From the IMG/VR virus record IMGVR_UViG_3300030333_002512, positions 1 through 64,000 of that record: a stretch of 64,000 nt of DNA. The stretch is one strand, 5' to 3'. The notes under the pieces are model-generated. The model had not been told where the DNA came from. It did no database searches and was given only the letters and a program-made list of their open reading frames with translations. A program made the position numbers and the translations under genes. This document shows, piece by piece, positions 1,603 through 31,812 of this stretch. Every line of letters starts with the position of its first letter. Positions within the stretch are counted from its first letter, which is position 1. This DNA comes from a virus.

Positions 1603-2709
1603 TCACGTTATGAAATGGACAATGTTCTTCTTGCCTTGAATTATCTTATTGGCCTCTTCAATGAGAATGTCATGCTTATCCTTTAGACTGATATTAGATT
1701 CTGTTTCTGCTATCAGGATAGAGTTATCATCATGCCTTATGATTTCAGCCGCTACCAATTTGGTTGCTGCTTCGTGAATGGGAGCAGGGACTCTTCCATC
1801 CCCTGCAACATAGGTGACTCTAATGGAGTTGTTCTGTAGGTATGGATACTCTTCATGGAAGAAAATCTTACCTTCATCACTAATCATCCAAAAATCATCT
1901 AATCTGCCTTGGTCTTCATGTGCGGTGAATCCGACAACAGAACCAACTGCGGCATTGCTATTATCAGTATCAACCGAAGTTATCGTGCAACTAGAGCCAT
2001 CGGTTCCTAGAAGCAATGAGGATATTACCACAGTCTTGCCATCTTCACTGTCTGTAGTAGCATAGAAGAAATCAGATATATTCACATTGGCATTGCCATT
2101 TGCAGTGACGGATTTAGCAGCAGTTTCCCCTGTAAACTTGGCAGTCTTAGTAGGGAACACTTCGTTTATTGCATCCACTAACTGGCTTGCTGTTGTCTTA
2201 GGCCCAAAGGTATCATAGAAATGTGTCCCTTCCACTAAGTCAAATGTGTATGTCCCTGCGGTTAATCTGATTCTCCAACTGACGCTACTACCAGTAGCCG
2301 AATCAGGTAGGGTAATCTTAGCAGTAGCAGAAGCCAAATCGGTGTAGGAATCTCCTTGCCACACTTCTAGTCTGACAACCTTCTGAACCTTTGGATATGA
2401 CAACTGGACAAACCCAACGTAGTCCTTCCAGACCTTAACAGGATAGAGACTCTTAGCCATGGCATCAAATGAGTGAAACTCATCCTTGTGAATAATAGGC
2501 CTGTAGGTTTGCTTAATGGAATCATCAATTTTCTCCTCAGCCCTCTTTATCAATTTTCCAACTTCTACTAGGTTAGGAGTAGTAGAAGCCGTGAAGTTTC
2601 CGATTTGCAATAGATTAGAGATGTCTTCTGCGCGAGTATAATGGCCATTACCTGATGCGTAATTCACATTTATCGTAGTGAAATCACTAGGGGAACTTAC
2701 CTTGCCCAT
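1603..2709 (-). CDS. Putative head-tail adaptor with beta-rich insertion
   Basis: N-terminal Y-T-x-x-E-D-I...LIKRAEEKID and C-terminal IRVTYVAG...VPAPIHEAATKLVA match the gp6/gp15-like adaptor pattern. Confidence 0.6.
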   Translation of the reverse strand: MGKVSSPSDFTTINVNYASGNGHYTRAEDISNLLQIGNFTASTTPNLVEVGKLIKRAEEKIDDSIKQTYRPIIHKDEFHSFDAMAKSLYPVKVWKDYVGFVQLSYPKVQKVVRLEVWQGDSYTDLASATAKITLPDSATGSSVSWRIRLTAGTYTFDLVEGTHFYDTFGPKTTASQLVDAINEVFPTKTAKFTGETAAKSVTANGNANVNISDFFYATTDSEDGKTVVISSLLLGTDGSSCTITSVDTDNSNAAVGSVVGFTAHEDQGRLDDFWMISDEGKIFFHEEYPYLQNNSIRVTYVAGDGRVPAPIHEAATKLVAAEIIRHDDNSILIAETESNISLKDKHDILIEEANKIIQGKKNIVHFIT

Positions 2710-5408
2710 CAGACCACACCCTCAACTATTTGTTTCAAATCCACATACTCCTCATAAACTGCAATTAAATCCATGGCATCTTGTCTTGCTTCATCTCTAT
2801 CTCGGTTGCCATATGCTTGCAACCTTCCATATTCATCTTTAACCTTCTTGTCTTCTTTACCGGGAATCTTTACAAGTTTCGTTTTGCCTGTGGGTATCCT
2901 TTCATCACCAAATCGAGTTCCTTCTCTATATGGATTTGACCCACCTTTTGCACTGCTCCTCCAAGGTTCAGAACGTATTGCTCTTGTGTCTATTTTCATC
3001 TTTTCTTTGATACCTGTAGAAGCAATCCAAATGAAAGGAATATCCAATGATTTACCCTTCTCTCCTAGTTCTGTTTCTGCTTCAGTGGCAATGTGTCTCC
3101 AACCGCCTTTTTCAGTAGTCATTAGCCAATCTTCAATCCACTCGGCTACTCCTTCTCTACCTTCATTTGTTTCTTCATACATTAAGTGATAATTAACCGA
3201 GCCTTTGTCAAGTGGTTTGATTTCCTTTACCTTCTTTTTTGTTGGCTTCTTCTTACCTTTTTCTTGGATTTCTATTTCCTTTGGTTTGGTGTCCTTACTT
3301 AGAGCATCCTCAAGTTTGTTTAGTCCACCAATAATCAAAGTTGAAATTCTTCTCAAATTCTTTCTGTATTTTTCAACTTCTGCTGGATTAGTTGGTAAAT
3401 CCCCTTTGATGTTCAAATATCTAGAGACACTTCGAACGGCTTCGAATTCATCACCTTCTTTGGTAGGTGCTAATTTTCTTCTAACATTCCCACCATAATC
3501 CATTTCTCCCCTATGCATGGCCTTTACACCTAATGACTTTCCATATTGTTTGGTGTTCTCATCATACTCAAACCAAATAGGTTCACCATTGGGGTCGGTG
3601 ACATATTTTGGGGCTGCGGAGTATCCTCCTTCTTGCACTTTGTTCAAGTCATCTTGTAGTTTGCTTCGTAGAACATCTATCTTCCCCAATGTGTCTCGTA
3701 TCTGCATTCTTGGTCTTCTCTCATCAGGTAATTTAGTGAATTCACCTGTATTAACAACGATGTCAAACTTACCAATTCCACTACCAAATAGAGAACCTAA
3801 CATTTTATCGAAGAAATCTTCTTCTTCTAATCCCTCAGTCAGTTCTTCTATGGTGATTTTAGCATTCTTAATGTCTTCAAATGCATCGAATACTCTTGTT
3901 GCATGTCTAATTAATTTATCTCTGTCTTTTTCAAAGTCTGTTTTTTTCTTTGGATTTTTCGAGGGTTCAAAGGGTTGTTCCCCCCAATTCTTATCTGACA
4001 TTAGAAACCTACTAAAATCCTCAAGACTCTCTAAATGCTTAGTATAGGCTCGTAGTTCAATTTCAACCATACCAACCTCAATTAGATTATTCTGTGGTTT
4101 CAATGCTCCTTTTACTTCTTCTTTCAATCTAGTCTTTTTATTGTCATCTAATTGATTCTCAACCATTCTAGACAGATATTTCTGACTGAAATTCTCCTCT
4201 AAGAAATCGTTCAATCCATCATAAAAGTCTTCTACACTTGAAAACATCTTCTTCTTGGAATTGTAGTCTTGAATATAGAAACGGTTATTTTGAGTTTTTC
4301 CTATAATCACTAATGCATCTTCAATCGCACTCTTGTTTTTCGAATCCTTGGGAATATTTGCTGCCTTTCTTAGCATCTTTTCTACATCTTCCTTGAACCA
4401 ATTAGGGTCTAGGTGATTTGCAAGCATTGTATATGTCACATTATCAGGTTTGATGTTTCTTCTCTTTCTTGCTACAGCATTTCTTTCATCATCCTCGTCA
4501 ACGTCTTCTTGGCTATAGAACCACTTTCTAGCCTCTTCTTCCATCTTTTGTTTTTTACCGCTTCTGAGTTCTGCTGCTACAGCATCTTCATGTTCTTTTG
4601 ATGAGTCTTTTGTCTCACCCGTATCATCTTCACTTGTATCTCGAACCCCAAAGTAAAATTCTTCAGGGTCATTGAAATCACCAAAACCATTCTTGATGAA
4701 TAGTTTTCTGAAATATTCTCTTGTGTCAATGCGAATGGTTCTACCTTTGTATGTAGATGTGTCATTAACGTCAATTGATATGTAGTCCTTTAGTAAATTC
4801 TCAACTATTATTGCATATCCTTTATCGAAGGCATCCATGAAGTCAGAACTTCTGGATGAGTATAGTTTTGCCTTCTCCGGCTCACTTTGTCTAGCCCTAC
4901 TACTTTCTCCTGTTGATGTAGCCTTCCCTGTTCCTTTTTCATATCTGTATCCAAGAAGATTGTGTCTGATATTTTGAGAAGCCAATTTTACAAAACTAAT
5001 CCTATCCTTTTGCATTTCTCTTCTCAGACTATTACTGAAGAACCTGTTTTTTCCCTTTCCACCTTTCTTGAGGAACCCCTGTTGCTCTAACGCGGGAAGT
5101 ATTTTCATGATAGGAGTCTTTTCTAGAGTCTTCAAATAATGTATTAAATGGTCTTCAAATTCATCCTCATTTCTAATTCCATCATCAGCATCCAATTGAA
5201 TGAAAGTATTCATTATGCGTTCTGCATTCTTCATTTTATTTGTTGGATTCTGAACTACACTATGAAATGGATATGCGCAAAAATACCTGAAGAAAACTTG
5301 GTTGGAAAATAAATTGTCAAAGTTTCTTCTCAAATCAGCGTCTTCTAGAGTTGGTGCATATTCTAGTTGTTCTAAGCCCTTGATATCTCTAGTAATCGTT
5401 ATGGGCAT
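2709..5408 (-). CDS. Large hypothetical charged protein (899 aa)
   Basis: Long ORF with RBS; K/E-rich; no motif recognised. Confidence 0.7.
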   Translation of the reverse strand: MPITITRDIKGLEQLEYAPTLEDADLRRNFDNLFSNQVFFRYFCAYPFHSVVQNPTNKMKNAERIMNTFIQLDADDGIRNEDEFEDHLIHYLKTLEKTPIMKILPALEQQGFLKKGGKGKNRFFSNSLRREMQKDRISFVKLASQNIRHNLLGYRYEKGTGKATSTGESSRARQSEPEKAKLYSSRSSDFMDAFDKGYAIIVENLLKDYISIDVNDTSTYKGRTIRIDTREYFRKLFIKNGFGDFNDPEEFYFGVRDTSEDDTGETKDSSKEHEDAVAAELRSGKKQKMEEEARKWFYSQEDVDEDDERNAVARKRRNIKPDNVTYTMLANHLDPNWFKEDVEKMLRKAANIPKDSKNKSAIEDALVIIGKTQNNRFYIQDYNSKKKMFSSVEDFYDGLNDFLEENFSQKYLSRMVENQLDDNKKTRLKEEVKGALKPQNNLIEVGMVEIELRAYTKHLESLEDFSRFLMSDKNWGEQPFEPSKNPKKKTDFEKDRDKLIRHATRVFDAFEDIKNAKITIEELTEGLEEEDFFDKMLGSLFGSGIGKFDIVVNTGEFTKLPDERRPRMQIRDTLGKIDVLRSKLQDDLNKVQEGGYSAAPKYVTDPNGEPIWFEYDENTKQYGKSLGVKAMHRGEMDYGGNVRRKLAPTKEGDEFEAVRSVSRYLNIKGDLPTNPAEVEKYRKNLRRISTLIIGGLNKLEDALSKDTKPKEIEIQEKGKKKPTKKKVKEIKPLDKGSVNYHLMYEETNEGREGVAEWIEDWLMTTEKGGWRHIATEAETELGEKGKSLDIPFIWIASTGIKEKMKIDTRAIRSEPWRSSAKGGSNPYREGTRFGDERIPTGKTKLVKIPGKEDKKVKDEYGRLQAYGNRDRDEARQDAMDLIAVYEEYVDLKQIVEGVV

Positions 5409-5423
5409 CCATCAACCCCCCTC

Positions 5424-6110
5424 CTAAGCAAGCCATTTAGCCCAAGCAACTCCCTTGGATATTGCTTGTCCTAATCCCAAACCACTTGATGGAGGTGTGT
5501 ATGTAGGCTGACCCGTCATTGGGTCAATCCAGTATGGATTATTCATATTATCATAACCTGAAGGGGGTATTGGATAACCCGACTGGTTGTTCATTGCCAT
5601 CATTTGTGTATTCATTTGGTTGTTCATACCTACTGCTGCATTGCTGCCTTGTATCTGTGATGGGTCTAGTCCACCCGCGTTAGCAACCTGTGGAGCCTGT
5701 GCAGCAGGTGCTTGGAACCCTTGTGCCTCAAGATACTGTTGTTTAGCCATTCTCCTTTGCATGATTACTTCACTGTTTATTGCAGAAGCAAGTAGATTCT
5801 GTAGGTCTAGTTGAATGTTCTCAGCAGTTATGGTAGCATATTCTGCCAAAGCATCAGAAGATACTTCCATATCCCCATTAGTATTGGTCACGAATTTCAT
5901 CTTAGGCAACATTTGTCCCAATACCTTTTGCGTGACATCTTCCATTAATTGTGCCAAAGCCGCTAGGAAAGTCTCACCATGATATTGAAAGAAGTCCTCT
6001 ACATGGTTTTCTTGTAGCGTCAGCAGGTTGTTTATTGCCTTAAACTGGCCTTGCTGATGCTGGTTCATCTGATTCATTAAAGTTGTATTGCTAGTTCCGA
6101 AAAGTCCCAT
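5424..6110 (-). CDS. Q/N/M-rich protein with C-terminal amphipathic helix
   Basis: Low-complexity QNMP tail ending GLGLGQAISKGVAWAKWLA; coupled to the upstream ORF. Confidence 0.65.
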   Translation of the reverse strand: MGLFGTSNTTLMNQMNQHQQGQFKAINNLLTLQENHVEDFFQYHGETFLAALAQLMEDVTQKVLGQMLPKMKFVTNTNGDMEVSSDALAEYATITAENIQLDLQNLLASAINSEVIMQRRMAKQQYLEAQGFQAPAAQAPQVANAGGLDPSQIQGSNAAVGMNNQMNTQMMAMNNQSGYPIPPSGYDNMNNPYWIDPMTGQPTYTPPSSGLGLGQAISKGVAWAKWLA

Positions 6111-6799
6111 TATGATTCCTCCGTTTCCGTAGTCGCATCTGCGTCTACATCTGTGACGACAACGCCTTCAGTCAATAATGCTTTCATTCTAGAACTATTT
6201 GCTTCGCTTTCAATTAGAAGTCTAAATAGTTCTTCTTCCTTACTTATCTCACTCATTTGTGGTGGTTTGATTGTCCATCCTAGAGCAGACAAAGATTGAA
6301 TGTCACCTTGTTTCAGAGTAGTCAATGGTGCAGAACTTACTAGGTTTACAGGATTCAAACTCTTAGCAGAAGGGATATACGCACTGAATGACAGACCATG
6401 TTCCTCTGCTAGTATCTGTTGCTCTAACATCTCATACTGTCTGTGTATAGCAGCATGTTTCTCACAGTAGGTTCCTCTCATTGGATATCCCTTGCGAACC
6501 TTGTGAAGTGGTAATGGTGGTCGCATAGCATCATTGCCATCCCAAATCTTGTGAGTTCCACAAACTACACATCTATCCTTGATGTTATACTTGAATTTGT
6601 ATGGGAACTTTAGGAAAGTTTTCATCTCCGGTTTGAGTATCTGTATTATCTCTTTCAATTGTTTCTTTGGCTTTATGTTTTTGAATTCATAAGCCATAAT
6701 TGCTCCGGCGGCTCTAGCCGAATCCATTCTATTGAGAAACGGGTTTGTGCCGTTAGCGTTCATTTCTATCAAGTTCGAAGGCTGATATTGCATTGACAT
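6110..6799 (-). CDS. Zn-binding hypothetical protein
   Basis: CVVC...YCEKH motif; directly downstream of the GTPase. Confidence 0.6.
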   Translation of the reverse strand: MSMQYQPSNLIEMNANGTNPFLNRMDSARAAGAIMAYEFKNIKPKKQLKEIIQILKPEMKTFLKFPYKFKYNIKDRCVVCGTHKIWDGNDAMRPPLPLHKVRKGYPMRGTYCEKHAAIHRQYEMLEQQILAEEHGLSFSAYIPSAKSLNPVNLVSSAPLTTLKQGDIQSLSALGWTIKPPQMSEISKEEELFRLLIESEANSSRMKALLTEGVVVTDVDADATTETEES

Positions 6800-6815
6800 C
6801 TAATTTACTCCTCGG

Positions 6816-7487
6816 TTAGTAGTCCTTTATCATTGTTAGGATTCCCCTATATACCATTTCCGAATCAGATTTGGCACTTACTATGTATTTGAAACACGGA
6901 ATTCCCTTATCATTCAATTTCTGCATTCCATTTCTAAATGATTCAAAAATAGGATGTTTTTCTATTGGCCCATCGTGTTCATATTTATCCTTCCATAAAT
7001 CATATTTGTTTGCCCAAATACCTACAGCAATGGGGAAATCATGGTCACGCTTCTTTTTCTTTTTGTTTCCTATATGCCAATGTGGGGCGCAAATTGAATC
7101 CACTAGAAAAGTCCAACACAATTGTTGTTCGATATCATAGTGCTTATCCATGTGTCTGTCGTCAATCATGAAAATAACATACTTCACATGACGGCTTCTC
7201 ATGTCCTCTAACCATTCTTGCCAATATATCGTTTCCCCACCAATATCAGCAGTCTTGACAGTATGTGCATCACCATCTAGTTTGACGTATTTCCTAGTGG
7301 CCCTATGTCTCCCTTCCGTTCTATTGAGAATAGTCGGGACTTCTCCTCTTGTTCGCAATTGGTGATGTAATGTCGTCTTACCAACCTTACTAGCACCATA
7401 TACACCGAAGTTAATTGCATGGAGCCTTTGGTATAGTTTGTTTAGGCCTTCGACAATTAGTATGGCGAACCCCGCCATAACTGACAT
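6816..7487 (-). CDS. Small Ras/Arf-superfamily GTPase
   Basis: All G boxes are visible: G1 GASKVGKTT, G2 T (RAT), G3 DIGG, G4 NKYD, G5 SAK; hydrophobic N-terminal helix. Confidence 0.85.
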   Translation of the reverse strand: MSVMAGFAILIVEGLNKLYQRLHAINFGVYGASKVGKTTLHHQLRTRGEVPTILNRTEGRHRATRKYVKLDGDAHTVKTADIGGETIYWQEWLEDMRSRHVKYVIFMIDDRHMDKHYDIEQQLCWTFLVDSICAPHWHIGNKKKKKRDHDFPIAVGIWANKYDLWKDKYEHDGPIEKHPIFESFRNGMQKLNDKGIPCFKYIVSAKSDSEMVYRGILTMIKDY

Positions 7488-7491
7488 TCAA

Positions 7492-7716
7492 TCACCACAA
7501 ATGATGCCAAAAGTCCACTAAGCCATTCCATGCCCATGCAAGGGTGTTTATTCCCATTATTGCCATTGCTTGTCCTACAATGAAACTACACAAACATGCG
7601 GCGGCTCCCCACAAGTAGAATCTAGTTCGTAGAAACCAAATATCAGCAGAATGCGCTCTTTGTAAGTCGTATGCGAGAGTGGATTCATCCATTCCAAATA
7701 GGATTTCTCCAACCAA
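7492..7716 (-). CDS. Small membrane protein
   Basis: Hydrophobic segment FYLWGAAACLCSFIVGQAMAIMGI followed by a Trp-rich amphipathic tail. Confidence 0.6.
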   Translation of the reverse strand: MVGEILFGMDESTLAYDLQRAHSADIWFLRTRFYLWGAAACLCSFIVGQAMAIMGINTLAWAWNGLVDFWHHLW

Positions 7717-7724
7717 TCTAACAC

Positions 7725-8162
7725 CTACTGATTATCTATAGGCGTTAAGAAAGTGGGACTCACTAGTTGTTGTTCCTCACCTACAACTGGTGGGGTAAAC
7801 GTTGGGAGGTTAGAGTCTCCGTAAACAGGTGGTGTTGGAATATTGAAATTCTGATTGAATTGTCTCATGGAATCCCTAACCCTCTTTCGGTTCTCTTCTT
7901 CTCTAGCCTTTCTACTCCAATAGGAATCTATTCTCCTTTGTAGTAGCCACTCCTCAATGTAGTCATTCATGAACAAGTCGAAGAATGCCTTGAGACACAT
8001 TATGCCCCCGACAGTTAGAATCCCAAAGAGAATGGCGTGTTCAATTGCACCATATGGGAAAGTAATTCCGTATTGTGAATACCAAAATATGTTAGAACCA
8101 CTTACTGCTCCAACGAAAAGGATAGTCATTACTAGCCTTGTATCTGTGTCAATGCTTGGCAT
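7725..8162 (-). CDS. Two-TM membrane protein
   Basis: Two hydrophobic helices then a charged tail; start re-set to ATG 8162 (TGATG overlap). Confidence 0.65.
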   Translation of the reverse strand: MPSIDTDTRLVMTILFVGAVSGSNIFWYSQYGITFPYGAIEHAILFGILTVGGIMCLKAFFDLFMNDYIEEWLLQRRIDSYWSRKAREEENRKRVRDSMRQFNQNFNIPTPPVYGDSNLPTFTPPVVGEEQQLVSPTFLTPIDNQ

Positions 8163-8443
8163 CACACCCACTCCAAGGAATAAGTTCCGGTTCCAGTGAC
8201 ATCAACATATAGACCCTCAGCACATATGCGACCATGCATATCATACTCTAGAGAGCCATTGGATGCTAGAACCATTCTAGCAATTTCCACTTTACCAGAA
8301 GTAGTTGCAGTTCCGGAATCCCATACTTGAACCGTAAAGGTGGAACCAGATGCATTTGTTGCGTGAATGCTTTTTAGGGCGCATCTTCCAACATATGCAA
8401 CTGCATCAGTTGATTTGACTCCACTCCCTACACAGTTTGCCAT
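8162..8443 (-). CDS. Small beta-rich virion-type protein
   Basis: 93 aa, G/S/T-rich, in the capsid operon. Confidence 0.5.
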   Translation of the reverse strand: MANCVGSGVKSTDAVAYVGRCALKSIHATNASGSTFTVQVWDSGTATTSGKVEIARMVLASNGSLEYDMHGRICAEGLYVDVTGTGTYSLEWV

Positions 8444-8926
8444 CTAAAGGCCACCCTTCCCTTCTGATAGCCTCTTGATGAGGTCTGCTTTTTTACCTTC
8501 CGTAGAACTTTTTCTTTCCTCTAGAAGTTTCTTGAGTTCCTTAACGGTCAAATCTTCTAGTTTAGGGGGGAGAGGCTCTAGTTCAGGCTCAACTACTTCT
8601 TCTTTAGGTTCAGGAGCCTTCACTTCCTTTGCTGCCTTTTTCTCCGCCTTTTTCTTTGCGGCTTTATCCTTATCTCGGAAAAGCCCACGGTCTAATGAAA
8701 GACCTTCGGGGAGCCTCAGAATCTTAGCATACTTATGCTGCTTGTCCGGACTCAAATCCTTCATGTCACGGCGGTCTTTATCAGTCCACTCGATTACGAC
8801 TCCCGAATCACCCACTAGTCTCCTAGCATATCTAAACGGGATTTCCGTGAAATGCGTTGTTATTTCGTATCTCCCATGCAAGATAACGGGTTCACTTTTC
8901 ATTCTTCTCAATCTTACCTTTGCCAT
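8444..8926 (-). CDS. SAP (HeH) domain protein
   Basis: C-terminal LEDLTVKELKKLLEERKSSTEGKKADLIKRL is a canonical SAP motif. Confidence 0.8.
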   Translation of the reverse strand: MAKVRLRRMKSEPVILHGRYEITTHFTEIPFRYARRLVGDSGVVIEWTDKDRRDMKDLSPDKQHKYAKILRLPEGLSLDRGLFRDKDKAAKKKAEKKAAKEVKAPEPKEEVVEPELEPLPPKLEDLTVKELKKLLEERKSSTEGKKADLIKRLSEGKGGL

Positions 8927-9380: not shown

Positions 9381-10775
9381 TCAAGCACTCTTCAGGTTCG
9401 TTATCTTTCCTTGTCCCTTGAAGAAGGAGCAGCATGTCTCGCCCATTGTTCGATACATGCCTTGGTTCCCAAGAGTCCCGACACCGAATGGGTTTCCGCT
9501 AGTAATACCATCCTCAAAGTATTGGGTTGGCTTCATTACGGATAACCATAGGTGGTCAGTATCTAGCACCAAGATATCGCTTAGGGTATTTGTCGTGTTG
9601 CTGCTCGTTGTGGGCATATCCTTTGCAGGGATGATGGGTATGTCGTAGTAGGTCGCTACTCTGAAACCAACTTCTGCACCCTTCACACCACGGACTCCGT
9701 TATGGGTCGGCACGATTTCCTTCCTGTCCATGAACCTCTCTTGGCTCTGTAGCAGGTCAGATATGTGCTGAATGGTGTCGTATCCTGTTAGGATAACCTT
9801 CGGGTTTCCTCCATTCTGCCTGATTCTGCGAATCATGTCATTTAGGATGCTTAGGGTTAGAACCCTTGCATCTGCGGCAGTCTCGTAGGAGCCACCAAAG
9901 TCAACCTCAGCATCTAGGAAAGATGCAGTTCCGGTGTAGACGTATGCGCCGCTACTTCCGGTCTTGGTTACTGCCCTTGAAGAACCGAACAGGTTTGCAA
10001 CGTCAGCCGCAGGTGCGGTTGCGTCATCGTTCTGTCCAGCAGTTACTAGAAGGTCAGCCTCCATCATCTTCCCGATTTCCTGTGCAGATGAAACTATCTT
10101 CATGAGAGAAGTGTAGTTCCTGTCCATGTTGGTAATTCCAGTCTGGTCATACTGCTCAAGAGGCATTAGTAGCATCTTGCTCTGAACCTCAGCGTGGAGT
10201 TTACCCATGTCCTCACGGACAATTGAACGGATATCTCCAACACCGTCATCAATAGCAGCCATCTCCATACCAAGTTCCGAGAACTCAAATAGATGAGCAA
10301 TCGTCTTTGGGCTGACATGCAACTTCGTGTATTCGGGAGCCATTGCAGTAAAGGGAGCAGTCCCTAGTGCTGCATTTTCAGGCTGACCGCCAATTTGGTC
10401 AGGCTTTGGTGCTGCTGCCTGTGCCGAAGTCATTGTCTTGGTGACATCGTTAGAGCCTATTCCGAAAGCGGAACCGCTTCCACCCATAGGCCTTGCCTTC
10501 AAGACTCGCCAACCGCTAGATGTGTATGGCCTCTTCGCAATCATCGAGAGAGGGTTTACCTCTTGGTTTAGCATCGACCAAACTTTCTGCCCATAAAGCA
10601 GGTTGTATAGGTCACCAAGGTTAGCAGCCGCAGTGAAGGGGTTTGATGAAGCATCGTGAGGAGTTCCGAAACCCCCAACAACGCCACCAGCCTTCAGCAG
10701 TGCATTACCTGACTCTCCACGGAGGCCGTATGTAGCAGCCTCCAAATCTTTCATCGTTCGTATGTATCCACTCAT
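9381..10775 (-). CDS. Major capsid protein (HK97 fold)
   Basis: 464 aa directly after the prohead protease; sequence pattern (PKVILTGY...YYDIPIIP...ILVLDTDHL...GKITNL) fits HK97-type MCPs. Confidence 0.85.
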   Translation of the reverse strand: MSGYIRTMKDLEAATYGLRGESGNALLKAGGVVGGFGTPHDASSNPFTAAANLGDLYNLLYGQKVWSMLNQEVNPLSMIAKRPYTSSGWRVLKARPMGGSGSAFGIGSNDVTKTMTSAQAAAPKPDQIGGQPENAALGTAPFTAMAPEYTKLHVSPKTIAHLFEFSELGMEMAAIDDGVGDIRSIVREDMGKLHAEVQSKMLLMPLEQYDQTGITNMDRNYTSLMKIVSSAQEIGKMMEADLLVTAGQNDDATAPAADVANLFGSSRAVTKTGSSGAYVYTGTASFLDAEVDFGGSYETAADARVLTLSILNDMIRRIRQNGGNPKVILTGYDTIQHISDLLQSQERFMDRKEIVPTHNGVRGVKGAEVGFRVATYYDIPIIPAKDMPTTSSNTTNTLSDILVLDTDHLWLSVMKPTQYFEDGITSGNPFGVGTLGNQGMYRTMGETCCSFFKGQGKITNLKSA

Positions 10776-10777
10776 GT

Positions 10778-12025
10778 TTAATCACTCCTGTAGTTTCTTG
10801 CAAAGTTGTGTATGTCATCCCAACTTACCTCAGCCGCAGTTGCGGTATCTGTTGGGATTCCTTCTGGAAGTTCAAAAGCAACTTCCTTAGCCTTGCGAAT
10901 CTCATTGTCCTTCTCGGATAGGGACTTCCTTAGTTCTGCGAACTCCTTCTTGAGAGCAGAAACATCGTTGCGAGCATCATACTCTGCTCTTTCTGCTTCT
11001 GATTTCTTGAGGGCTAGTTCTTCCTCTAGGCGATTTGCGAAGGTCTTCTGAAGTTCATCAATAGCCCTCTTCTCCAACTGCTCTGCCTTGAACTGCTCAT
11101 ATGCCTTCTCGACATTCTCAGCAGACAGATTTAGTGTTGGGAAATCAGATGCCTCTAATCCCTTGTTCACATTTCCTAGAGCAGCAGGTGCAGAAGTTGG
11201 CTTACCGCCACTTACTACTTCCTCACCAGCCTCGAACTCTCTTGTTTCATCCTCATCAAGAGCCTTTGCTTCTGAATCCTCATCCACAGACTCGTCATCG
11301 TCAGATAGTTCAAGGTCTTCTGCCCCGCCCTCATCTTCCATGTCCAAGTCCATGTCTTCATCTTCAGAATCGGTGTCCATATACTCCGCTTCCTTTCTTA
11401 CGTCATCTTCCTTGCCGATGCCGTTGATTTGACTTACCAAATCATTCAACTCGCCAAGTGCTTTTTCCAGTTTTTCACTCATTTCTTTTTCCTCCATTTT
11501 TAAAATGTCGAATTTTGCTTCCGGGTTAATCCCTTTTTCACAGATGGTTACCTCATGTAGTTCTAACTTGTCTATTTCGTTATATTGTCCAAATTCAGAA
11601 TTGTTCTTTTGCTTCTTTGAAATTGCCTGTCCACCGATGCTGAAAGACCGAAGCGTTCCTTTTCTAATACCTCTTGAGATTTCCTTAGCCTTCTCGATGT
11701 CATCGCGCATCTTGATTACTACATAGAATCCAACGTCATCCACTTCTGTTTTGTGTAGATTTCCGTTTTTATCTCGGTATTTTTCTATTACCTCCCCGAC
11801 TTGAACATTTGAATGATTTGACATTACATTCCGGAACTTCTTTTCTTCCATGTATTTGACTACTGCTTCCTTAAGTGCTGCTAGTGTGATTAGGTCATTC
11901 TGCTTGTCCACGATTTCGATAGATGCATAACCACCAATGACTAGATTATCAGACTTTAGAATCTGAAAGTTACCGTTTTGTTCCTCCTGTATATGCTGTG
12001 TCTTTTGCAATAACACTTCTCTCAC
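10778..12025 (-). CDS. Prohead protease with C-terminal scaffold
   Basis: GYAS...DKQND, H in MSNHS, catalytic RSFSIGG, LHEVTIC...NPEA (HK97-type protease); acidic/coiled-coil C-terminal half. Confidence 0.9.
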   Translation of the reverse strand: MREVLLQKTQHIQEEQNGNFQILKSDNLVIGGYASIEIVDKQNDLITLAALKEAVVKYMEEKKFRNVMSNHSNVQVGEVIEKYRDKNGNLHKTEVDDVGFYVVIKMRDDIEKAKEISRGIRKGTLRSFSIGGQAISKKQKNNSEFGQYNEIDKLELHEVTICEKGINPEAKFDILKMEEKEMSEKLEKALGELNDLVSQINGIGKEDDVRKEAEYMDTDSEDEDMDLDMEDEGGAEDLELSDDDESVDEDSEAKALDEDETREFEAGEEVVSGGKPTSAPAALGNVNKGLEASDFPTLNLSAENVEKAYEQFKAEQLEKRAIDELQKTFANRLEEELALKKSEAERAEYDARNDVSALKKEFAELRKSLSEKDNEIRKAKEVAFELPEGIPTDTATAAEVSWDDIHNFARNYRSD

Positions 12026-12037
12026 CTTTTTTTCTTA

Positions 12038-14653
12038 CTATTTAGCGTCTTCGTCTTGAGTTGGAGGTAATTTAACATCTGCATATTTATCCTCAGTGAT
12101 GTTCCACACCCCTTCATCTGCCTTGCGGTCTAGCATTTCTTGTTTCTTTCCAGTCCATGCAACCCATCTCTTTTTCTCATTAAGTGGGACAATTCTTATG
12201 TGAAGCCTAGTTTGGAATTTATTCCCATCTAGTCGGTATTCGTGATAGCCATCTCTTTGAACACCTATCTCAACTTCACCACTATCAAGAGTCTTTTTCT
12301 CATCATTTATTTTATCCAATACTTGCGCAGGGAATTTACCGGACTTGCCAAATAAGTTGTATATGTCTTCCGTATCATCTATGTCAATTAACCAAGCCAT
12401 TCTCTTTTCACGATAATTAATTATGAAGTTTATGTTATTGTCTTTAGTGACCACAAGAGAAAACTCACCGAGATTGCTGGATTTGTCATCAAATTTTTCA
12501 GAAACTTCTGTTTTCTTTATTTCCACATCCTTTTCTAGAATATCCTTGACCGCATCGAATTTGTTAGGATGCAGATATTTCAAGTCCTCCTGTTGTTTCA
12601 ACCATGACATCAACCGACCATCATCAGAATCAAACAATTCATCATATGTCTTTGGATAGTGTTCAACTACGAATCTTTCTATCTTGTCCAAACTGAGAGG
12701 CTTCCCTCTCTCTATGATTTCATTTCTTATTCCTATTCTCAGGTCTGACCGCTTGGTCTTGAGAATCTTCTCCACTTGTCCTTTCCAACTCTCTAAGTCA
12801 ATTGCGGCATTCTTTTCCATGAGAGAATCCCCCTTCAATCCATAGACCGTGAATCCATCTAATTCTCCCTTTAGAATAACTTCCGCTACGCCGTGAACAT
12901 GGTCAGTAATGTGTAGGGTCTTCTCAAGTCCGGTTCCGGGTTTGAACAAATCTCCTATCTTATCACCAAATACATAGTGCAATCCCGAATCCAAGGATTT
13001 CTTTGTCTTCGTGGCTAATTCCTCAAGTGTCTCTATCGTATCTGTTGTGTCTACTTCTGGTAGTTCGATAACTTGTGCTGAAATTAACTTGAAGTCCTTC
13101 TTTCCTTTCTTGACTTCATCAACCTTAACCCTAACAATGTCTCCAACCTTGACTTTGACTTTGGTATTCAATGCCTTGCCTACAGGAAGATACGCCTTGC
13201 CATCTATTTCCTTGACTTTGTATTCCCTAGCATCTTTACCGCTAAGGGGGCCAATTCCCAATTCGTAGGAATGTAGATTGCTCTTGGTTTTCTTTACATT
13301 CAACACTGCTACATCCAAGTCAACGAACTTCTTCCATTTGACCCACTTAGGATTCTTCCTGTTTCCAATGTAATATGTGGATTCCATATCCTTGATTACA
13401 ACTCCTTCGGAAGTAGGCATCTCCATTATCTTCTTTGAGTATTCTTCGACTTCCTCAATTGAGTCTGCAAGCCTAGTATCTTTCTTTGAAGGAAATGCCA
13501 AGTCCTCAGAAGAGTGTTGACCATATTGATAGAATAGAACATTGATTCTTTCCTTCAATGGTTCATCCGTCACACTCTTTCCTTCATGGTTCATTATATC
13601 GAAAACGTGCGCTCTCAATCTATGCTTTGTTTCCTTCTTGAAAATGTGACTAACAGTTGCGGCTCGATGTAGTGCCTCATCACCATCGAACAACATCAAT
13701 TCGGCATCTAGTATACAATCACCAAATTGCTTCTTTTCCATATGAGAAACTTGCTTGGCACATTTGTCTGTAATGTCCTTTTCATTGTAGGAGTATATCT
13801 TCACATCCCCATCTTTCTTGTGTATCTGTATTCTCATACCATCATATTTCTCTTGAACAACCCATTCACCTGTAAAGCCCTTCAACTTCTTTAGGTCTGC
13901 AATCTCAAAGATTCTATACAGTGGTTTGTTTGGGACAATGAAATCTATCTCGGCCTTTTCGTCTTCGCTCTTCTCAGACTTCTGCAAATCCAATTCTACT
14001 AAGGCCTCCCAATCCTCTTCCTCGTATTGTCCCTGAAACACCTTTTCTAAAAGAGCATAGGCTTGCTTGAATTTAGTCTTGATTCTCCTACTATCTGTAT
14101 CGTCATCACCATAATGTTCTGTGATGTATAGTGGAATGTCGTCAACTTCTAAATCCAATCCCATGTATCCCTGAGTCAGTTTGTCTTCCGGCATCTTGTA
14201 TTTCTGCCAAGCCTTCTCCGGTAATGCATTGGAATGTGAACGCATTGCATAATGGATGAAACTAGCAAAGATGTGGTCTTTTTCCAATAGAGTAGGAATA
14301 ACGTCTTTTCCAAGTTGCTTGGCAAAGGGGTCACTAACCCCCTTGGATTCAAATCTCATTTCTTTAATGGAGTCATAGACTTCCTTTGCCTGTCTGGTAG
14401 TTGGGTCTTTAGCCTCATCAGAAAACAAAGTCTTCTCCTTTAGGTATTCTTTCAATTCCCTTGAGAAATCAGAGATGTCATCGAATTCTCCTTTGATGTC
14501 CTCAATCGCCTTCTCCCATTTCTTCCTGTATTCTTCAGGGTCTTCCTTTGCAGAAAGATAGGCGAAACGGACTCTTTCGAAAAAATCTAGAACACGCTTT
14601 GTCATTGCGTCTTCTTCTTTTTCAAATTCTATACCCGATTGAGGCATGGTCAC
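12038..14653 (-). CDS. ATP-dependent DNA ligase, extended (structural-module copy)
   Basis: Motifs EKYDG, ILDAEL, VFDIM, EGVVIK, WVKWK; long N- and C-terminal extensions, the latter resembling the LigD phosphoesterase fold. Confidence 0.85.
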   Translation of the reverse strand: MTMPQSGIEFEKEEDAMTKRVLDFFERVRFAYLSAKEDPEEYRKKWEKAIEDIKGEFDDISDFSRELKEYLKEKTLFSDEAKDPTTRQAKEVYDSIKEMRFESKGVSDPFAKQLGKDVIPTLLEKDHIFASFIHYAMRSHSNALPEKAWQKYKMPEDKLTQGYMGLDLEVDDIPLYITEHYGDDDTDSRRIKTKFKQAYALLEKVFQGQYEEEDWEALVELDLQKSEKSEDEKAEIDFIVPNKPLYRIFEIADLKKLKGFTGEWVVQEKYDGMRIQIHKKDGDVKIYSYNEKDITDKCAKQVSHMEKKQFGDCILDAELMLFDGDEALHRAATVSHIFKKETKHRLRAHVFDIMNHEGKSVTDEPLKERINVLFYQYGQHSSEDLAFPSKKDTRLADSIEEVEEYSKKIMEMPTSEGVVIKDMESTYYIGNRKNPKWVKWKKFVDLDVAVLNVKKTKSNLHSYELGIGPLSGKDAREYKVKEIDGKAYLPVGKALNTKVKVKVGDIVRVKVDEVKKGKKDFKLISAQVIELPEVDTTDTIETLEELATKTKKSLDSGLHYVFGDKIGDLFKPGTGLEKTLHITDHVHGVAEVILKGELDGFTVYGLKGDSLMEKNAAIDLESWKGQVEKILKTKRSDLRIGIRNEIIERGKPLSLDKIERFVVEHYPKTYDELFDSDDGRLMSWLKQQEDLKYLHPNKFDAVKDILEKDVEIKKTEVSEKFDDKSSNLGEFSLVVTKDNNINFIINYREKRMAWLIDIDDTEDIYNLFGKSGKFPAQVLDKINDEKKTLDSGEVEIGVQRDGYHEYRLDGNKFQTRLHIRIVPLNEKKRWVAWTGKKQEMLDRKADEGVWNITEDKYADVKLPPTQDEDAK

Positions 14654-18521: not shown

Positions 18522-18625
18522 CTTTTCATCTCCTCCAAACTTTTTCTAATTCTTTCATCGGTTTCAGCATTTAATTTGTCAATCTCTTCTTTCCATTTTT
18601 TTACTATCTCAAGCAAATCTGTCAT
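18518..18625 (-). CDS. 35-aa microprotein (MTDLLEIVKK)
   Basis: Not in the ORF track; ATGA overlaps with the portal stop and the next start. Confidence 0.5.
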   Translation of the reverse strand: MTDLLEIVKKWKEEIDKLNAETDERIRKSLEEMKR

Positions 18626-20295
18626 GGAACTCTCCTTTCCGTTCTCTTATCTACGTTTTTATTTCCAACACCTTTGGGCATACCGCTAAATCTCTTGTCA
18701 GGGCCGACATTCATACTAGGCTTGTTTCTCTTTTTCCCACTGGGAGGTTCACCTTTCACTTCTTCCGGTTTTCCAGCAGCAGCCATGGATGGTTTAGTTC
18801 CGCTTTCCATCATTTGCCCTATGTGTTGTTGGTCAATGTTAGTTCCAGCGTATGGGTCTAATTCCACTTGTTCATCTTCGCCGCCTTGTTGTTCGGAACC
18901 ACCCGGAGGGGGGTCAGGTTTCTTGTATGAGAATCTGCCATCGTCATCCATGTCAACATCGAATCCTAGATTCTTTATTGCTGCTGCCACGTTTACCTCT
19001 ATCTCCCTCTTCCTGAGTTTCGCTATCTCATCTTCTTCTTCTGATGGTGGTAGTTTCAAAGTCCAATCAGTGATGCCGAACTCTTGAGTCATGAACGGGA
19101 AGACGTAATCATTCCAAATGGTCTGTGCCATTTCCACTGCTCTATTAGTGACAAGAACCTGCATACCCTCATTGTTCAACCCACCACTTGCAGAGTTATC
19201 TGCCATGAATATCTTGCTCACACCATAGAAGGCTGAGATTCTATCTCGCAGGTCATCTTTCACAGAGATGTAATCCATTTCCTTCAGGCTATCCATGAAC
19301 TTGACCCATTCAATGGAACCCTTTCCGTTATCGGATTCTATTCCCATTACAGGAATGAAGTGTGGGTCTTGTTCCATCTTCTCCTTGACACCACGCCAAA
19401 ATGACTTCATGGAATCCATGTTTCTAGTTTGAACTGCCAATAGTCCTCTTGGCATTCTTGCCTTTGTATATGATGAGTTCACATAATTCTCCATCGCTAT
19501 TAGTGTCGTGACATTGTTCCAAAGCGTGATGATGGGCGACAGACCATACAATCTAGATGGTGAGTATTTGCTGAAATGCAAAACTTCGCCCTTGATGAAA
19601 TACTGTTCTACTCCATTTACTCTATTGACATAATGAACTGGATGTAATTCCGATTTACATTCCTCACACAAATCCGTTGCAGTTTGAGATACCTTATCCC
19701 TGTGTTTCAAACAAGTGTATCCCTTGCTTCCTCTCTCTCCAATTTCATTCGAGTAGATGTGCATGGTAACAGGGTCACCCCTGTATATCTCCTTGATTCT
19801 ATGCATCTTGATGCTTGCATTGTTATCCATGAAGTATTCCTTGACGATAACGAGATATGCATCATCCATGATGTTCAAATCGTCTTCAAGTTCCTTGAGA
19901 ACATCAATGAAAAGTTGTTCGGACTTGTTTACATATCCCTCAAGGAATTTATGTGCATAGTCTAATTGCTTGGGGTCGGGTTTAATCAAATCAACAGAAC
20001 CACATTGCTTGCATTGCTTAACTGGTGAACTGTGTTCCTCCCCACAGGCTTTACACTTCGATACGAATTTCTCTTCCCAAGTATATCCGCGCCTAAATAT
20101 CTCTTGTTTCAATTGAGTTACGCACGTTCTCACAATTGTAGATTGTTGGGCAATGTGGTAGATAATCGGGGAAGTTAGTAGGTATGAGGTATCCTTCTCT
20201 TGAATCCCCGGATTGAATATTGTCCTATCTGCTGGTTTAGGAGTTGTTCTTCTGAACAAATTACCCACACTGAATCTGCGCTTTTCTTCTACCAT
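18622..20295 (-). CDS. Portal protein
   Basis: EVLHF...YGLSPI...PRGLL...ISAFYGVS is the HK97-family portal pattern; lies between terminase and protease. Confidence 0.88.
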   Translation of the reverse strand: MVEEKRRFSVGNLFRRTTPKPADRTIFNPGIQEKDTSYLLTSPIIYHIAQQSTIVRTCVTQLKQEIFRRGYTWEEKFVSKCKACGEEHSSPVKQCKQCGSVDLIKPDPKQLDYAHKFLEGYVNKSEQLFIDVLKELEDDLNIMDDAYLVIVKEYFMDNNASIKMHRIKEIYRGDPVTMHIYSNEIGERGSKGYTCLKHRDKVSQTATDLCEECKSELHPVHYVNRVNGVEQYFIKGEVLHFSKYSPSRLYGLSPIITLWNNVTTLIAMENYVNSSYTKARMPRGLLAVQTRNMDSMKSFWRGVKEKMEQDPHFIPVMGIESDNGKGSIEWVKFMDSLKEMDYISVKDDLRDRISAFYGVSKIFMADNSASGGLNNEGMQVLVTNRAVEMAQTIWNDYVFPFMTQEFGITDWTLKLPPSEEEDEIAKLRKREIEVNVAAAIKNLGFDVDMDDDGRFSYKKPDPPPGGSEQQGGEDEQVELDPYAGTNIDQQHIGQMMESGTKPSMAAAGKPEEVKGEPPSGKKRNKPSMNVGPDKRFSGMPKGVGNKNVDKRTERRVP

Positions 20296-21791: not shown

Positions 21792-23225
21792 TCAGAAATT
21801 TAGCCCTAACATACCGCCTATAGAATTATTCACAGGTTTTGGGTCTTCAAATATGCCCATATCATCCAACATCAAGAACACATCATTTGGATTTTGAGAA
21901 GCAGCATTGGCAAGAGCAAGGCTCATCACAAGGTCATCGTGTGCGCCAACACCCTCAAACTTTCCGCTACTTGTGATGGCAAACATGGATAGTTCCTCAA
22001 TCAAAGAACCAGTCAATCTCCTACTAGCGTTATCCCCATAGGGAAATCTGATTTTCTGATTCTCGATGTTCATCTGTAGATTCAGAATTATCTCTTGCTT
22101 CTTCTTTCTAGTTGTATGGAAGTCTCTTACATTCAAATCGGATATATTGCGCAATTCTTGTGTGAATGCCTTAGCGAAGGTGTTTGTCTCATAGAGAATT
22201 TCTTCAGGTTGGAATATCTTTCCAATCAATCTAATCTTCTCTATGTTCTCCCTGAACTCTACGTTCTTTGCTCGGTCAACGTGAACGATTGTCTTATTCA
22301 TCTCATCATCGACTTCCAAGACGGTAATGACATTGTAGTCACCATCGGTTGAGATAGCAGGGTCAACACCAACATAGTATTTGTATCCCTTATCCTTCCT
22401 ATTGCCTAATTTGAGAACGTGGTCTTTGCTCTTGCATTTTTCGATATACTCAGGATTGAACAAAGCCGTTCCCGTAGAGATTGGGACACAAAGATACTCT
22501 CGCGTGAATTTCAATGAGCCTATCTCCGCCTTCCTTTGCATGAGAGCATCATAGTTCCATCGGTCTGCCCATAATGGTTCATTCATAGCATCCAAACACG
22601 GATACTTCGTGACAGTATACGCATCATTATCTTCTAACTGTGCGAAGATATCTGTGTAAGTGAAAGGGGTTCCAATCATTCTAAGATTAGATGAGTGGTG
22701 AAGCGTAGGTATCATGTCACCGAAGAACCAATCAGTCACTCTTTGAATAGCAGATAGGCTGAACTCCTTCAAAGGGTCGTCAATGATAATCTCCTGTGGG
22801 TGAAGTCCTCTAATCTGAGAACCAACTGAACGTTCTAGAATTGCATTTCCATTAGTGAGTTGAATGTTTCCAATTGCCCAACCCCTAGAAGGTTTGAACT
22901 TCTTTAGTGCTGGATGATTGAACATCCTATCTATCTCGCGCATGTGAACGAGAGTCTGCTTTTGGTTAGACGAGATGTATAGCATTTGAAATGGAGGCTC
23001 TTGGAAGATTAGGTTCCATACAACCCAACTGTGCATGAATACGGATTTTCCATGGTCACGCGCACAGATAATAACAGTCCTATCTGTTTTCTGCATTGTC
23101 TCTAGCCATTCTTGCATGTATTCGGGATACATCATACCGAGGACATTCTGGAAGAAGTAAGGAAAGGATGCCTTAGACAATTCCATATCCATAGAAGACA
23201 TGAAGTCCATGTTTTCTAATTCCAT
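21792..23225 (-). CDS. terL: Terminase large subunit
   Basis: Walker A ARDHGKS, Walker B IIIDD, coupling motif GTP, nuclease VGVDPA...DY...HDDLVMS. Confidence 0.92.
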   Translation of the reverse strand: MELENMDFMSSMDMELSKASFPYFFQNVLGMMYPEYMQEWLETMQKTDRTVIICARDHGKSVFMHSWVVWNLIFQEPPFQMLYISSNQKQTLVHMREIDRMFNHPALKKFKPSRGWAIGNIQLTNGNAILERSVGSQIRGLHPQEIIIDDPLKEFSLSAIQRVTDWFFGDMIPTLHHSSNLRMIGTPFTYTDIFAQLEDNDAYTVTKYPCLDAMNEPLWADRWNYDALMQRKAEIGSLKFTREYLCVPISTGTALFNPEYIEKCKSKDHVLKLGNRKDKGYKYYVGVDPAISTDGDYNVITVLEVDDEMNKTIVHVDRAKNVEFRENIEKIRLIGKIFQPEEILYETNTFAKAFTQELRNISDLNVRDFHTTRKKKQEIILNLQMNIENQKIRFPYGDNASRRLTGSLIEELSMFAITSSGKFEGVGAHDDLVMSLALANAASQNPNDVFLMLDDMGIFEDPKPVNNSIGGMLGLNF

Positions 23226-30589: not shown

Positions 30590-31156
30590 TCATCTCCAAT
30601 CTATCTCTGTGTCAAAACCAAAACTATTTTTTAGATTCATGCCTTCTAATTTCTTTGCCGCATTATCTAACACTTCATTTATTTTCTTTGCCTTTGAAGT
30701 AGTTCTGAGGAATATCGTAGAAGGCCAAGGTGGGTTTTCTTTTGTTGGTGGATTCCCGTCTTTATCAGGGCCATCATGTGTTAATATTTCCATTTTAACA
30801 TACAAAGGGTTAGCGTTAGGTCTTGGCAATATATCCAAATTTCTATACCAAAGATTTGTTCTTTGATTCCACTTTGGGGAAACCATTGTCACTTTATCTC
30901 CATAAGCCGCTTTCAACTCATCAACAATTTCATCCCACACTTCTTCTGTTTCTTCTTTATGAGGAGGTTCTGTTCCGTATCTACTTTTAGGGTCTAACAT
31001 ACCTTCGGGGTTAAAGTGGTCACGATGACGAAACACATCCTTTCTTTTCCCGTATTCATCAAAACGAACATTACCTGCTTCATCATGAGAACTAAATATA
31101 GGGTCTGAAGTATCACCCCAACGCTCATCTTTTTTCAGTATGGCTTTCCAACTCAT
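30590..31156 (-). CDS. W-motif protein (MSWKAILKK)
   Basis: Start re-set to ATG 31156 (ATGA overlap, GGAGG RBS). Confidence 0.7.
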   Translation of the reverse strand: MSWKAILKKDERWGDTSDPIFSSHDEAGNVRFDEYGKRKDVFRHRDHFNPEGMLDPKSRYGTEPPHKEETEEVWDEIVDELKAAYGDKVTMVSPKWNQRTNLWYRNLDILPRPNANPLYVKMEILTHDGPDKDGNPPTKENPPWPSTIFLRTTSKAKKINEVLDNAAKKLEGMNLKNSFGFDTEIDWR

Positions 31157-31812
31157 TGCATCTTCTCCTCCATCTTCTTCCTGACATCCAACCATACATC
31201 AGGATGATTCTGCGCTAGAACCTCCTTGACGATTTGCATTTGGTGAACTATAATCGTGTCCTGTCTCTTGTGAACTAACTTGCCCTTGAACTCCATGACA
31301 TACTTCAGACTCTCCCTAATCTCCTTGGCCATCTTAGTTAGCGAGTCGATATACTTGGGATTACCAACTTCCTCCATGTCGAACAACTCGTCTATCTTCC
31401 CCTCAAGCCTTCTGATGTTCCTAGTTAGAGTCTCGACCTCATCCAATTCCCTAGCGGCAATCATCTGTGCGGCAGACTTCTGCACTAGAGGCTGAACGTG
31501 ATTTCGCATATGACGAACGACTTGCTCGACAGAACAATCTTCCATCTTCGCTGCCATCTCCGGAGTCATATCCCCATTGTATATGTTTACTTCAATATCC
31601 CCGCGCATCTCAGATGTGCATATGTTGCAGCGTGGATTCGATGAGTCCTCATAGTGACCCATGTGATTTCGCTGATGCTTTGATGCAGTGCCACTAGGCC
31701 AGTCCATATTCTTGTCAAGTTGGTCAGCAGTCATTTTGAGTCCTTCCAAATCTGCTTCCATATCTTCCCTATCAGGGTGATTGCAAAATGCACATCTCTT
31801 TCTAATAATCAT
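31153..31812 (-). CDS. Zn/HTH protein, candidate terminase small subunit
   Basis: Two CxxC...HTH...H-x3-H repeats followed by a coiled coil. Confidence 0.45.
   Translation of the reverse strand: MIIRKRCAFCNHPDREDMEADLEGLKMTADQLDKNMDWPSGTASKHQRNHMGHYEDSSNPRCNICTSEMRGDIEVNIYNGDMTPEMAAKMEDCSVEQVVRHMRNHVQPLVQKSAAQMIAARELDEVETLTRNIRRLEGKIDELFDMEEVGNPKYIDSLTKMAKEIRESLKYVMEFKGKLVHKRQDTIIVHQMQIVKEVLAQNHPDVWLDVRKKMEEKMQ

Follow-up and report, generated by a model that had tools for sequence, protein, structure and literature searches.

What does a small GTPase of the Arf type do amid the virion genes of a tailed virus? This question is raised by a block of five genes at positions 5424 to 8162 (minus strand) of the IMG/VR virus record IMGVR_UViG_3300030333_002512, which we read as a magrovirus, i.e., a tailed virus that infects archaea of Marine Group II (Poseidoniales). 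We analyzed the first 64 kb of this record, referred to here as the window; the complete record is linear and 77,125 bp long, with a CheckV completeness of 82% and a GC content of ~40%. The five open reading frames (ORFs) encode, in this order, a protein with two transmembrane (TM) segments (2-TM protein), a protein with a single TM segment (1-TM protein), the GTPase, a protein with a conserved Cys/His cluster (Cys/His protein), and a protein rich in Gln and Asn (Q/N-rich protein). The original prediction, made from the DNA letters without database searches, had described the five genes as tightly coupled, and this description holds: all ORFs are present, and the gaps or overlaps, counted from an upstream gene of 93 amino acids (aa) through gene 5, amount to -1, 8, 4, 16, and -1 nt. 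The block is, furthermore, contiguous and co-oriented with the genes for the large terminase subunit (TerL), the portal, the protease, and the major capsid protein (MCP). We interpret it as a viral GTP switch that acts at membranes, is expressed together with the late genes, and may have as its likeliest output a timed breach or remodeling of the host membrane that releases the particles; we favor this explanation while rating its chances as somewhat less than even. The notion of a membrane-directed late switch is based on the Arf-like fold of the GTPase, its N-terminal helix and basic patch, the adjoining TM proteins, the N terminus of the 1-TM protein, and the co-orientation with late genes.

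The GTPase (gene 3; 6816-7487, minus strand; 223 aa) has intact G1 to G5 motifs. The signatures GxxxxGKT (G31-T38), T57, D81xGG (D81-G84), N160KxD (N160-D163), and S204AK (S204-K206) were invariant in 25 homologues, and the motifs are also retained in relatives that share ~30% identity. The AlphaFold2 (AF2) model (pLDDT 75, pTM 0.76) contains the six-stranded fold of G domains; a Foldseek search with this model matched solely small GTPases and G-alpha, and the nearest structural neighbors were Arf, Arl, or Sar proteins. At the level of single sequences, the protein scored below all Pfam cutoffs (the best family was SRPRB, with an E value of 3.7e-4 and 20.4 bits versus a cutoff of 25), it did not match the Pfam Arf family (PF00025) at an E value of ≤1, and phmmer retrieved no PDB sequence at an E value of ≤1. 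Across the wider viral GTPase family, Arf was the best-scoring Pfam family, with 11 of 21 members matching at an E value of ≤0.1 (best value, 4.2e-9), and the automatic annotation of JGI labels some of the homologues "GTPase SAR1 family protein." These data support the view that gene 3 encodes a real, Arf-like, and very divergent switch protein. Its likeness to the Arf family (Arf1, Arf6, Arl1/2/3/6/8, and the Asgard protein ArfR1, PDB 8OUM and 8OUK) consists of a G3 motif of the form DxGG[Q/E], a conserved Trp 11 residues past the Asp of this motif, and a helix that precedes the G domain. In contrast to the Arf family, the viral protein lacks Gly2 for myristoylation (it starts with MSV), carries a Glu in place of the catalytic Gln, and has a polybasic hairpin insert; moreover, its gene is that of a virus infecting non-Asgard archaea and belongs to a fixed cassette that also specifies membrane proteins. 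The haloarchaeal virus protein HCTV-1 gp117, which is of equal length (223 aa), was considered as a counterpart and discarded, being unrelated to the GTPase.

Two features of the GTPase are predicted to direct it to membranes. (i) The AF2 model predicts an N-terminal helix at residues 2 to 22, composed of a 12-residue hydrophobic core followed by an amphipathic stretch. An extension of ~30 residues before G1 with such a 12-residue core was found in all 118 close homologues (median KD12 hydrophobicity, 2.35), and the most distant relatives possess full N-terminal TM segments, with KD19 values of up to 2.3. (ii) The polybasic hairpin is inserted at approximately residues 136 to 147, between helix 3 and strand 5, and 115 of the 118 close homologues contain, between G3 and G4, a 12-residue stretch with 5 to 9 Lys or Arg residues. 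The alignments thus support the conservation of both putative membrane-binding determinants across the family, and of the features that the original prediction had pointed out, the five G boxes are borne out and the hydrophobic N-terminal helix is predicted by the model.

We then considered where this GTPase family occurs. A profile search of 1.84 billion representative proteins yielded 83 matches at an E value of ≤1e-3, and a tblastn search of 50,697 GenBank phage records with the GTPase yielded none. A search for homologous proteins with a broad GTPase alignment returned the viral family only and no cellular relatives. Among 185,579 species genomes, two contigs matched (NZMJ01000101.1 and NZMJ01000024.1), both from a single metagenome-assembled genome (MAG) named "Maricaulis." These contigs show the magrovirus gene order (ligase, protease, MCP, cassette) and a GC content of 35 to 37%, and they are most likely viral contigs that were misbinned into a bacterial MAG. 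Because of the 83 profile matches, the lack of matches in GenBank phages, and the restriction to presumably misbinned contigs among species genomes, the family is, as judged from these searches, virus specific. GTPase homologues are located on contigs of up to ~104 kb from Tara and other marine samples. Two additional locus searches in IMG/VR, with the queries A4 and P0129, found nothing.

To compile related loci, the closest 80 of more than 507 IMG/VR matches were retained as close loci, the short ones among them ending at contig ends. Their gene order was the same in all 80 cases, namely, ligase, protease, MCP, small genes, 2-TM, 1-TM, GTPase, Cys/His, Q/N-rich, and a large variable gene. 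A second clade, clade B, comprises more than 257 contigs of ~100 kb, in which the GTPase is 25 to 31% identical to that of the window. In clade B, the 2-TM protein measures 143 to 188 aa, the 1-TM protein 73 to 80 aa, the GTPase ~241 aa, the Cys/His protein ~300 aa, and the Q/N-rich protein ~215 aa; the block additionally contains a TM protein of ~85 aa. A third, rarer clade (clade 3) has the same architecture, and its GTPase, too, shares only ~30% identity with that of the window. The synteny in relatives that had been proposed as a check was therefore found throughout the 80 close loci and again in the two distant clades, so that the refuting condition named originally, a lack of such synteny, did not hold; the GTPase gene always comes next after one or two genes for small membrane proteins and immediately ahead of the Cys/His and Q/N-rich genes. 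The comparison of the individual products gave graded results. The Cys/His proteins of the window clade and clade B aligned with an hhalign probability of 96% (E value, 3e-9), and a BLASTP comparison with clade 3 gave an E value of 9e-6. The Q/N-rich proteins of the window clade and clade B aligned with a probability of 92.5% (E value, 4.7e-7), and the clade 3 protein starts with MKMGLFGN. For the 2-TM protein, topology and position are the same in the window clade and clade B and the similarity is weak (28%; E value, 6e-4); clade 3 and clade B proteins matched with E values of 1e-7 to 3e-13. The 1-TM proteins of the window clade and clade B occupy the same position, with no similarity detectable by hhalign (probability of 0.7%). 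Judged by these alignments, the GTPase, Cys/His, and Q/N-rich proteins of the window clade and clade B are homologous.

The location of the block differs between the clades. In the window, it follows the MCP gene at a distance of 1.2 kb, whereas in clade B it is found ~6 kb upstream of TerL and ~20 kb from the MCP gene, adjoining a homologue of the window gene at 31153-31812. The block has therefore been translocated as a unit, and no other observation argues as strongly for a joint function of the five products. In addition, the GTPase gene showed the highest conservation within the region in 66 of 78 loci (median identity of 82%, versus 76% for the MCP), a figure that is biased upward since the loci were picked by GTPase similarity. 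In several clade B genomes (L085, L087, and L094), the first cassette gene is preceded by 0.5 to 1.5 kb with very small ORFs only; this stretch could be a promoter or small-gene region that opens a late transcription unit. The gene adjoining the clade B block encodes a protein of ~220 to 236 aa with two CxxC motifs (31153-31812, minus strand, in the window; L105:11850-12542 in clade B) that is kept across clades with 27 to 35% identity; it is the invariable downstream neighbor of the cassette in clade B and is located 8 kb upstream of TerL in the window.

The first two genes encode the membrane proteins. Gene 1 (7725-8162, minus strand) codes for the 2-TM protein of ~145 aa, identified from its ORF and its KD19 hydrophobicity. 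Translation probably begins at the ATG at 8162, given that homologues start with MPSIDTDTR; this codon overlaps with the stop codon (TGA) of the upstream gene, and an in-frame GTG at 8171 is an alternative start. A dual start of the holin/antiholin type at these two codons (GTG 8171 and ATG 8162) was considered and rejected, since the upstream in-frame codons vary among homologues. The protein has one strong hydrophobic segment (KD19, 2.09; approximately residues 41 to 64) and one marginal segment (KD19, 1.56; approximately residues 13 to 31), followed after TM2 by a conserved, charged juxtamembrane helix rich in Lys, Arg, and Glu and by a tail rich in Pro and Gln. It was found in 77 of the 80 close loci, with a median identity of 65%. 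Gene 2 (7492-7716, minus strand; TTG start) codes for the 1-TM protein of 74 aa, with a KD19 value of 1.95 at residues 35 to 57, and was found in 79 of the 80 close loci. Its soluble N-terminal ~30 residues are nearly invariant within the window clade and its TM segment is variable; from this pattern, the N-terminal segment looks like a docking site. The original identification of two TM proteins was accordingly confirmed by the KD19 values, with the reservation that the first segment of gene 1 is marginal.

Gene 4 (6110-6799, minus strand) encodes the Cys/His protein of 229 aa, in which the alignments revealed a Cys-Cys...Cys-His cluster. Among 21 sequences from the three clades, C77 and C112 were present in all, H115 in 20, and C80 in 17, the remaining 4 sequences carrying a second Cys a few residues further on. 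The cluster is probably a metal site, judging from this conservation, so that the earlier designation as a Zn-binding protein stands as far as a likely metal site is concerned, with the metal itself being a prediction. The protein contains, in addition, a basic segment and a C-terminal acidic helix. It had no Pfam, PHROG, or PDB sequence relative (a PDB profile search gave chance-level rows only), its AF2 model was poor (pLDDT 57), and Foldseek found no match to this model at an E value of ≤0.001. An ArfGAP-like reading of the stretch C112-x2-H115-x3-H-R120 was rejected as a feature of the family, because the Arg occurs in the window clade only; in addition, there was no match to the Pfam ArfGap family, and the ligands are Cys-Cys-Cys-His. 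The prediction of a complex between the GTPase and the Cys/His protein gave a score of 0.00; with the fold of the latter being uncertain, this result is uninformative on binding.

Gene 5 (5424-6110, minus strand) encodes the Q/N-rich protein of 228 aa, of which 47 residues are Gln or Asn (21%). It is composed of an invariant MGLFG start, a helical core, a low-complexity stretch of Gln, Asn, Met, and Pro, and a hydrophobic C terminus rich in Gly and Trp. The last 18 residues form a hydrophobic end of only moderate amphipathicity (muH, ~0.28 to 0.36); hence, the Q/N richness described initially was corroborated and so, to a moderate degree, was the amphipathic C terminus. The protein matched no Pfam family at an E value of ≤1 and no PDB relative, profile searches giving chance-level rows only. 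We take its MGLFG N terminus to resemble the N termini of ESCRT-III proteins; there was no match to the Pfam family Snf7 at an E value of ≤1 and no ESCRT-III chain in the profile searches of PDB sequences, a comparison at the level of sequence. ESM Atlas look-ups of the Cys/His and Q/N-rich proteins gave leads below 0.9 only. In an hmmscan search, all four partner proteins of the GTPase were without a Pfam family at an E value of ≤1.

The genomic context is that of virion genes. Coding is on the minus strand across positions 1 to 38.4 kb of the window, and this segment includes the genes for TerL (21792-23225), the portal (18622-20295), a ligase-domain protein of 871 aa (12038-14653; Pfam ATP-dependent DNA ligase, 5.8e-30) inside the head gene block, the prohead protease (10778-12025), and an HK97-type MCP (9381-10775), all on the minus strand. 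The MCP shares 24% identity with its counterparts in HVTV-1 and HCTV-1, two tailed viruses of haloarchaea. Magroviruses, which rank among the most abundant viruses in surface ocean waters, include the groups A and B, whose described signature is a second ligase within the structural genes (Philosof et al.; PMC5434244). Our reading of the record as a magrovirus is based on the recognizable head genes, the marine relatives, and the second ligase within the structural block. One marine metatranscriptome run contains contigs identical to the record over 7906-8281 and over the MCP and protease genes; contigs from an RNA library are not equivalent to a proof of transcription, and the cassette parts that they leave uncovered are uninformative.

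On its upstream side, the cassette is bordered by the gene for the 93-aa protein (8162-8443, minus strand), the stop codon of which overlaps the start of gene 1. This gene was found in 75 of the 80 close loci, with a median identity of 41%, and lies outside the cassette in the other clades. Between it and the MCP gene, a 160-aa protein (8444-8926, minus strand) has a C-terminal SAP domain (Pfam, 1.1e-7) after a linker rich in Lys, Glu, and Pro; it was detected in just 35 of the 80 close loci. On the downstream side, a hypervariable gene for an 899-aa protein (2709-5408, minus strand) forms the 3' boundary of the cassette. It was detected in 25 of the 80 close loci and shows 45% identity where the GTPase shows 92% and the MCP 94%, a pattern expected of a host recognition or tail protein under diversifying selection, to judge from the sequences. 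The original prediction had placed the five genes between head and neck genes. This placement was not upheld, since the downstream genes at 2709-5408, 1603-2709, and 881-1417 match no known family, and it is valid for the window clade at most.

If the block acts on the host membrane late in infection, its relation to known lysis genes is of particular relevance. A hydrophobicity scan of the whole 77-kb contig predicted four membrane proteins on the coding strands, two of which are the TM proteins of the cassette. The other two are a 72-aa protein with one long hydrophobic stretch (contig positions 73316-73534, plus strand), which is an alternative holin-like candidate, and a 127-aa protein with an N-terminal anchor (window positions 53754-54137, plus strand). 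The 2-TM protein corresponds to the generic description of a holin, namely, a small TM protein with a charged, hydrophilic C terminus (PMC10791045), a description that is not diagnostic. Holins and lysins were searched for among 30 of the larger minus-strand proteins of the window, which were compared with Pfam and 20 of them also with PHROGs; none was recognized, and the earlier statement that the window contains neither is thus upheld for the part covered. The sole hint of lysis was an insignificant match of the 899-aa neighbor to a PHROG endolysin (E value, 0.021), with no stretch passing. The cassette resembles the holin cassettes of tailed phages in its small membrane proteins, the charged C-terminal tail, and the late transcription unit. 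It differs from them in that there is no endolysin and no recognized holin family, and its host has no murein wall. The lysis genes of phage lambda are located just upstream of the terminase block, as is the cassette of clade B. A holin system that has a GTPase, a Cys/His protein, and a Q/N-rich protein among its parts has, to our knowledge, not been described.

A release mechanism that would accommodate these observations is as follows. Once GTP is bound, the GTPase would, like Arf and Sar1, expose the N-terminal helix and dock to the host membrane from the cytoplasmic side. Its partners at this site might be the highly conserved, soluble N terminus of the 1-TM protein and, in the 2-TM protein, the charged juxtamembrane helix. 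The GTPase would have its regulator or effector in the Cys/His protein, and the Q/N-rich protein, with its hydrophobic ends, might self-associate at the membrane. The GTPase would thus be the gate or timer and the membrane proteins the holin-like executors. On the basis of gene content and sequence features, a role in egress is plausible.

A number of observations weigh against this interpretation. (i) The place of the block inside the virion genes suits a role in the virion or its assembly equally well. (ii) Neither of the two TM proteins, the putative executors, is demonstrably homologous between clades. (iii) Comparison with Pfam and PHROG recognized no lysin, S-layer-degrading enzyme, or holin family in or beside the block. 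(iv) Membrane binding of the GTPase is a prediction, and the KD19 value of its N-terminal helix (1.33) is under the TM threshold of 1.6. (v) The position of the catalytic Gln of Arf is occupied by Glu in the window protein (DIGGE); among the close homologues, 80 have Glu and 38 have Gln here, and others carry His, Ala, or Asp; this variability, seen in the alignments, may leave the mechanism of hydrolysis unclear. (vi) R120, a candidate Arg finger in the Cys/His protein at what we take to be an ArfGAP-like spacing, is confined to the window clade (9 of 21 sequences). (vii) The host is uncultured.

The same data are compatible with a function in assembly, entry, or manipulation of the host. The cassette might encode a membrane-tethered organizer of assembly that marks a membrane patch or builds vesicles or a condensate for proheads, packaging, or tails, with the FG-type ends of the Q/N-rich protein forming a self-associating matrix and with no direct part in release. 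This would be in line with the location of the block among head genes in the window clade and near the terminase block in clade B, with the low complexity of the Q/N-rich protein and its conserved MGLFG and Gly-rich hydrophobic ends, and with the general ability of Arf-type GTPases to recruit coats and effectors to membranes; the near-complete viral replisome might also profit from compartmentation (PMC5434244). Searches of protein families and the PDB found, however, no coat-like, scaffold, or known assembly domain, and related haloarchaeal tailed viruses build the same type of capsid without such a GTPase, as there was no tblastn match among the 50,697 GenBank phage records. We consider an assembly organizer rather unlikely. 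Alternatively, the TM proteins and the Q/N-rich protein may be packaged into the virion as a conduit for DNA during ejection, with the GTPase and the Cys/His protein acting as assembly chaperones or injected effectors. Ejection proteins of tailed phages are often membrane active and encoded among structural genes, the block is part of the virion genes and fills the slot that holds small genes between MCP and tail in the related HCTV-1, and its hypervariable downstream gene resembles that of a host recognition or tail protein. On the other hand, clades B and 3 do not have the block next to the capsid genes, the GTPase is very strongly conserved whereas entry proteins usually evolve fast, and we know of no precedent for a P-loop switch GTPase as a component of virions or ejection systems. 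In our opinion, virion-borne ejection proteins are very unlikely.

We give the least credence to a function in host takeover or protein targeting, in which an SR-beta-like GTPase would insert viral membrane proteins or the switch would disturb host division, vesiculation, or superinfection. SR-beta is an Arf-related GTPase that is tethered to the membrane by a hydrophobic segment at its N terminus, distant members of the viral family have true N-terminal TM anchors like those of SR-beta, and SRPRB was the best single-sequence Pfam match of the window protein. This match is, however, under the curated cutoff (20.4 versus 25 bits), the N-terminal segment of the window clade is too short for a TM helix, and an SR-alpha-like or SRX/longin partner is missing. 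Superinfection exclusion genes, moreover, are normally located outside late structural operons. As a cellular system of potential relevance, the ArvA-ArvB-ArvC (OapABC) operon drives vesicle formation in Haloferax volcanii and occurs in other Euryarchaeota; its small GTPase, ArvA, has a releasable hydrophobic helix (PMC10927574). The likeness to the Arv operon is one of architecture only, with a membrane-acting small GTPase followed by a Zn-type protein and a second small protein, and the viral cassette differs by opening with two integral membrane proteins that the Arv operon lacks. A six-frame search of the 77-kb record gave no match to PF09845 (OapC/ArvC) at an E value of ≤1, whereas the Haloferax control matched, and hmmscan gave no match to ArvB (DUF2073) among the four partner proteins at an E value of ≤1. 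The analogy to ArvA that had been drawn originally thus finds no support in sequence: PF09845 is absent, and the partners have no Pfam match.

Among these explanations, we continue to favor the membrane-acting late switch. The players in the egress of tailed archaeal viruses have been described as completely uncharacterized (review from 2024; PMC10791045). In its most specific form, our proposal would identify the cassette as the release machinery of these viruses, with an Arf-like switch docking on two holin-like membrane proteins and, together with a Cys/His regulator and a self-associating Q/N-rich protein, timing and executing the rupture or remodeling of the membrane; in all these details, it is doubtful. 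A full-text literature search retrieved no description of a virus-encoded small GTPase for archaeal viruses, the term "GTPase" was absent from the main texts of the magrovirus papers searched and from the supplements of one of them, and no description of the five-gene block was found in the literature searched.

If the proposal is true, this would be the first egress system controlled by a small GTPase in any virus of prokaryotes. The cassette is a concrete candidate for the egress step in that it is strongly constrained and virus specific and combines an Arf-type switch with membrane proteins; its GTPase gene is more strongly conserved than any other gene of the virion region in the majority of the loci compared, which were picked by GTPase similarity. 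Irrespective of its function, the cassette shows that viruses of Marine Group II archaea have recruited and retained membrane GTPases of the Arf-like kind, the discussion of which usually centers on eukaryotes and Asgard archaea.

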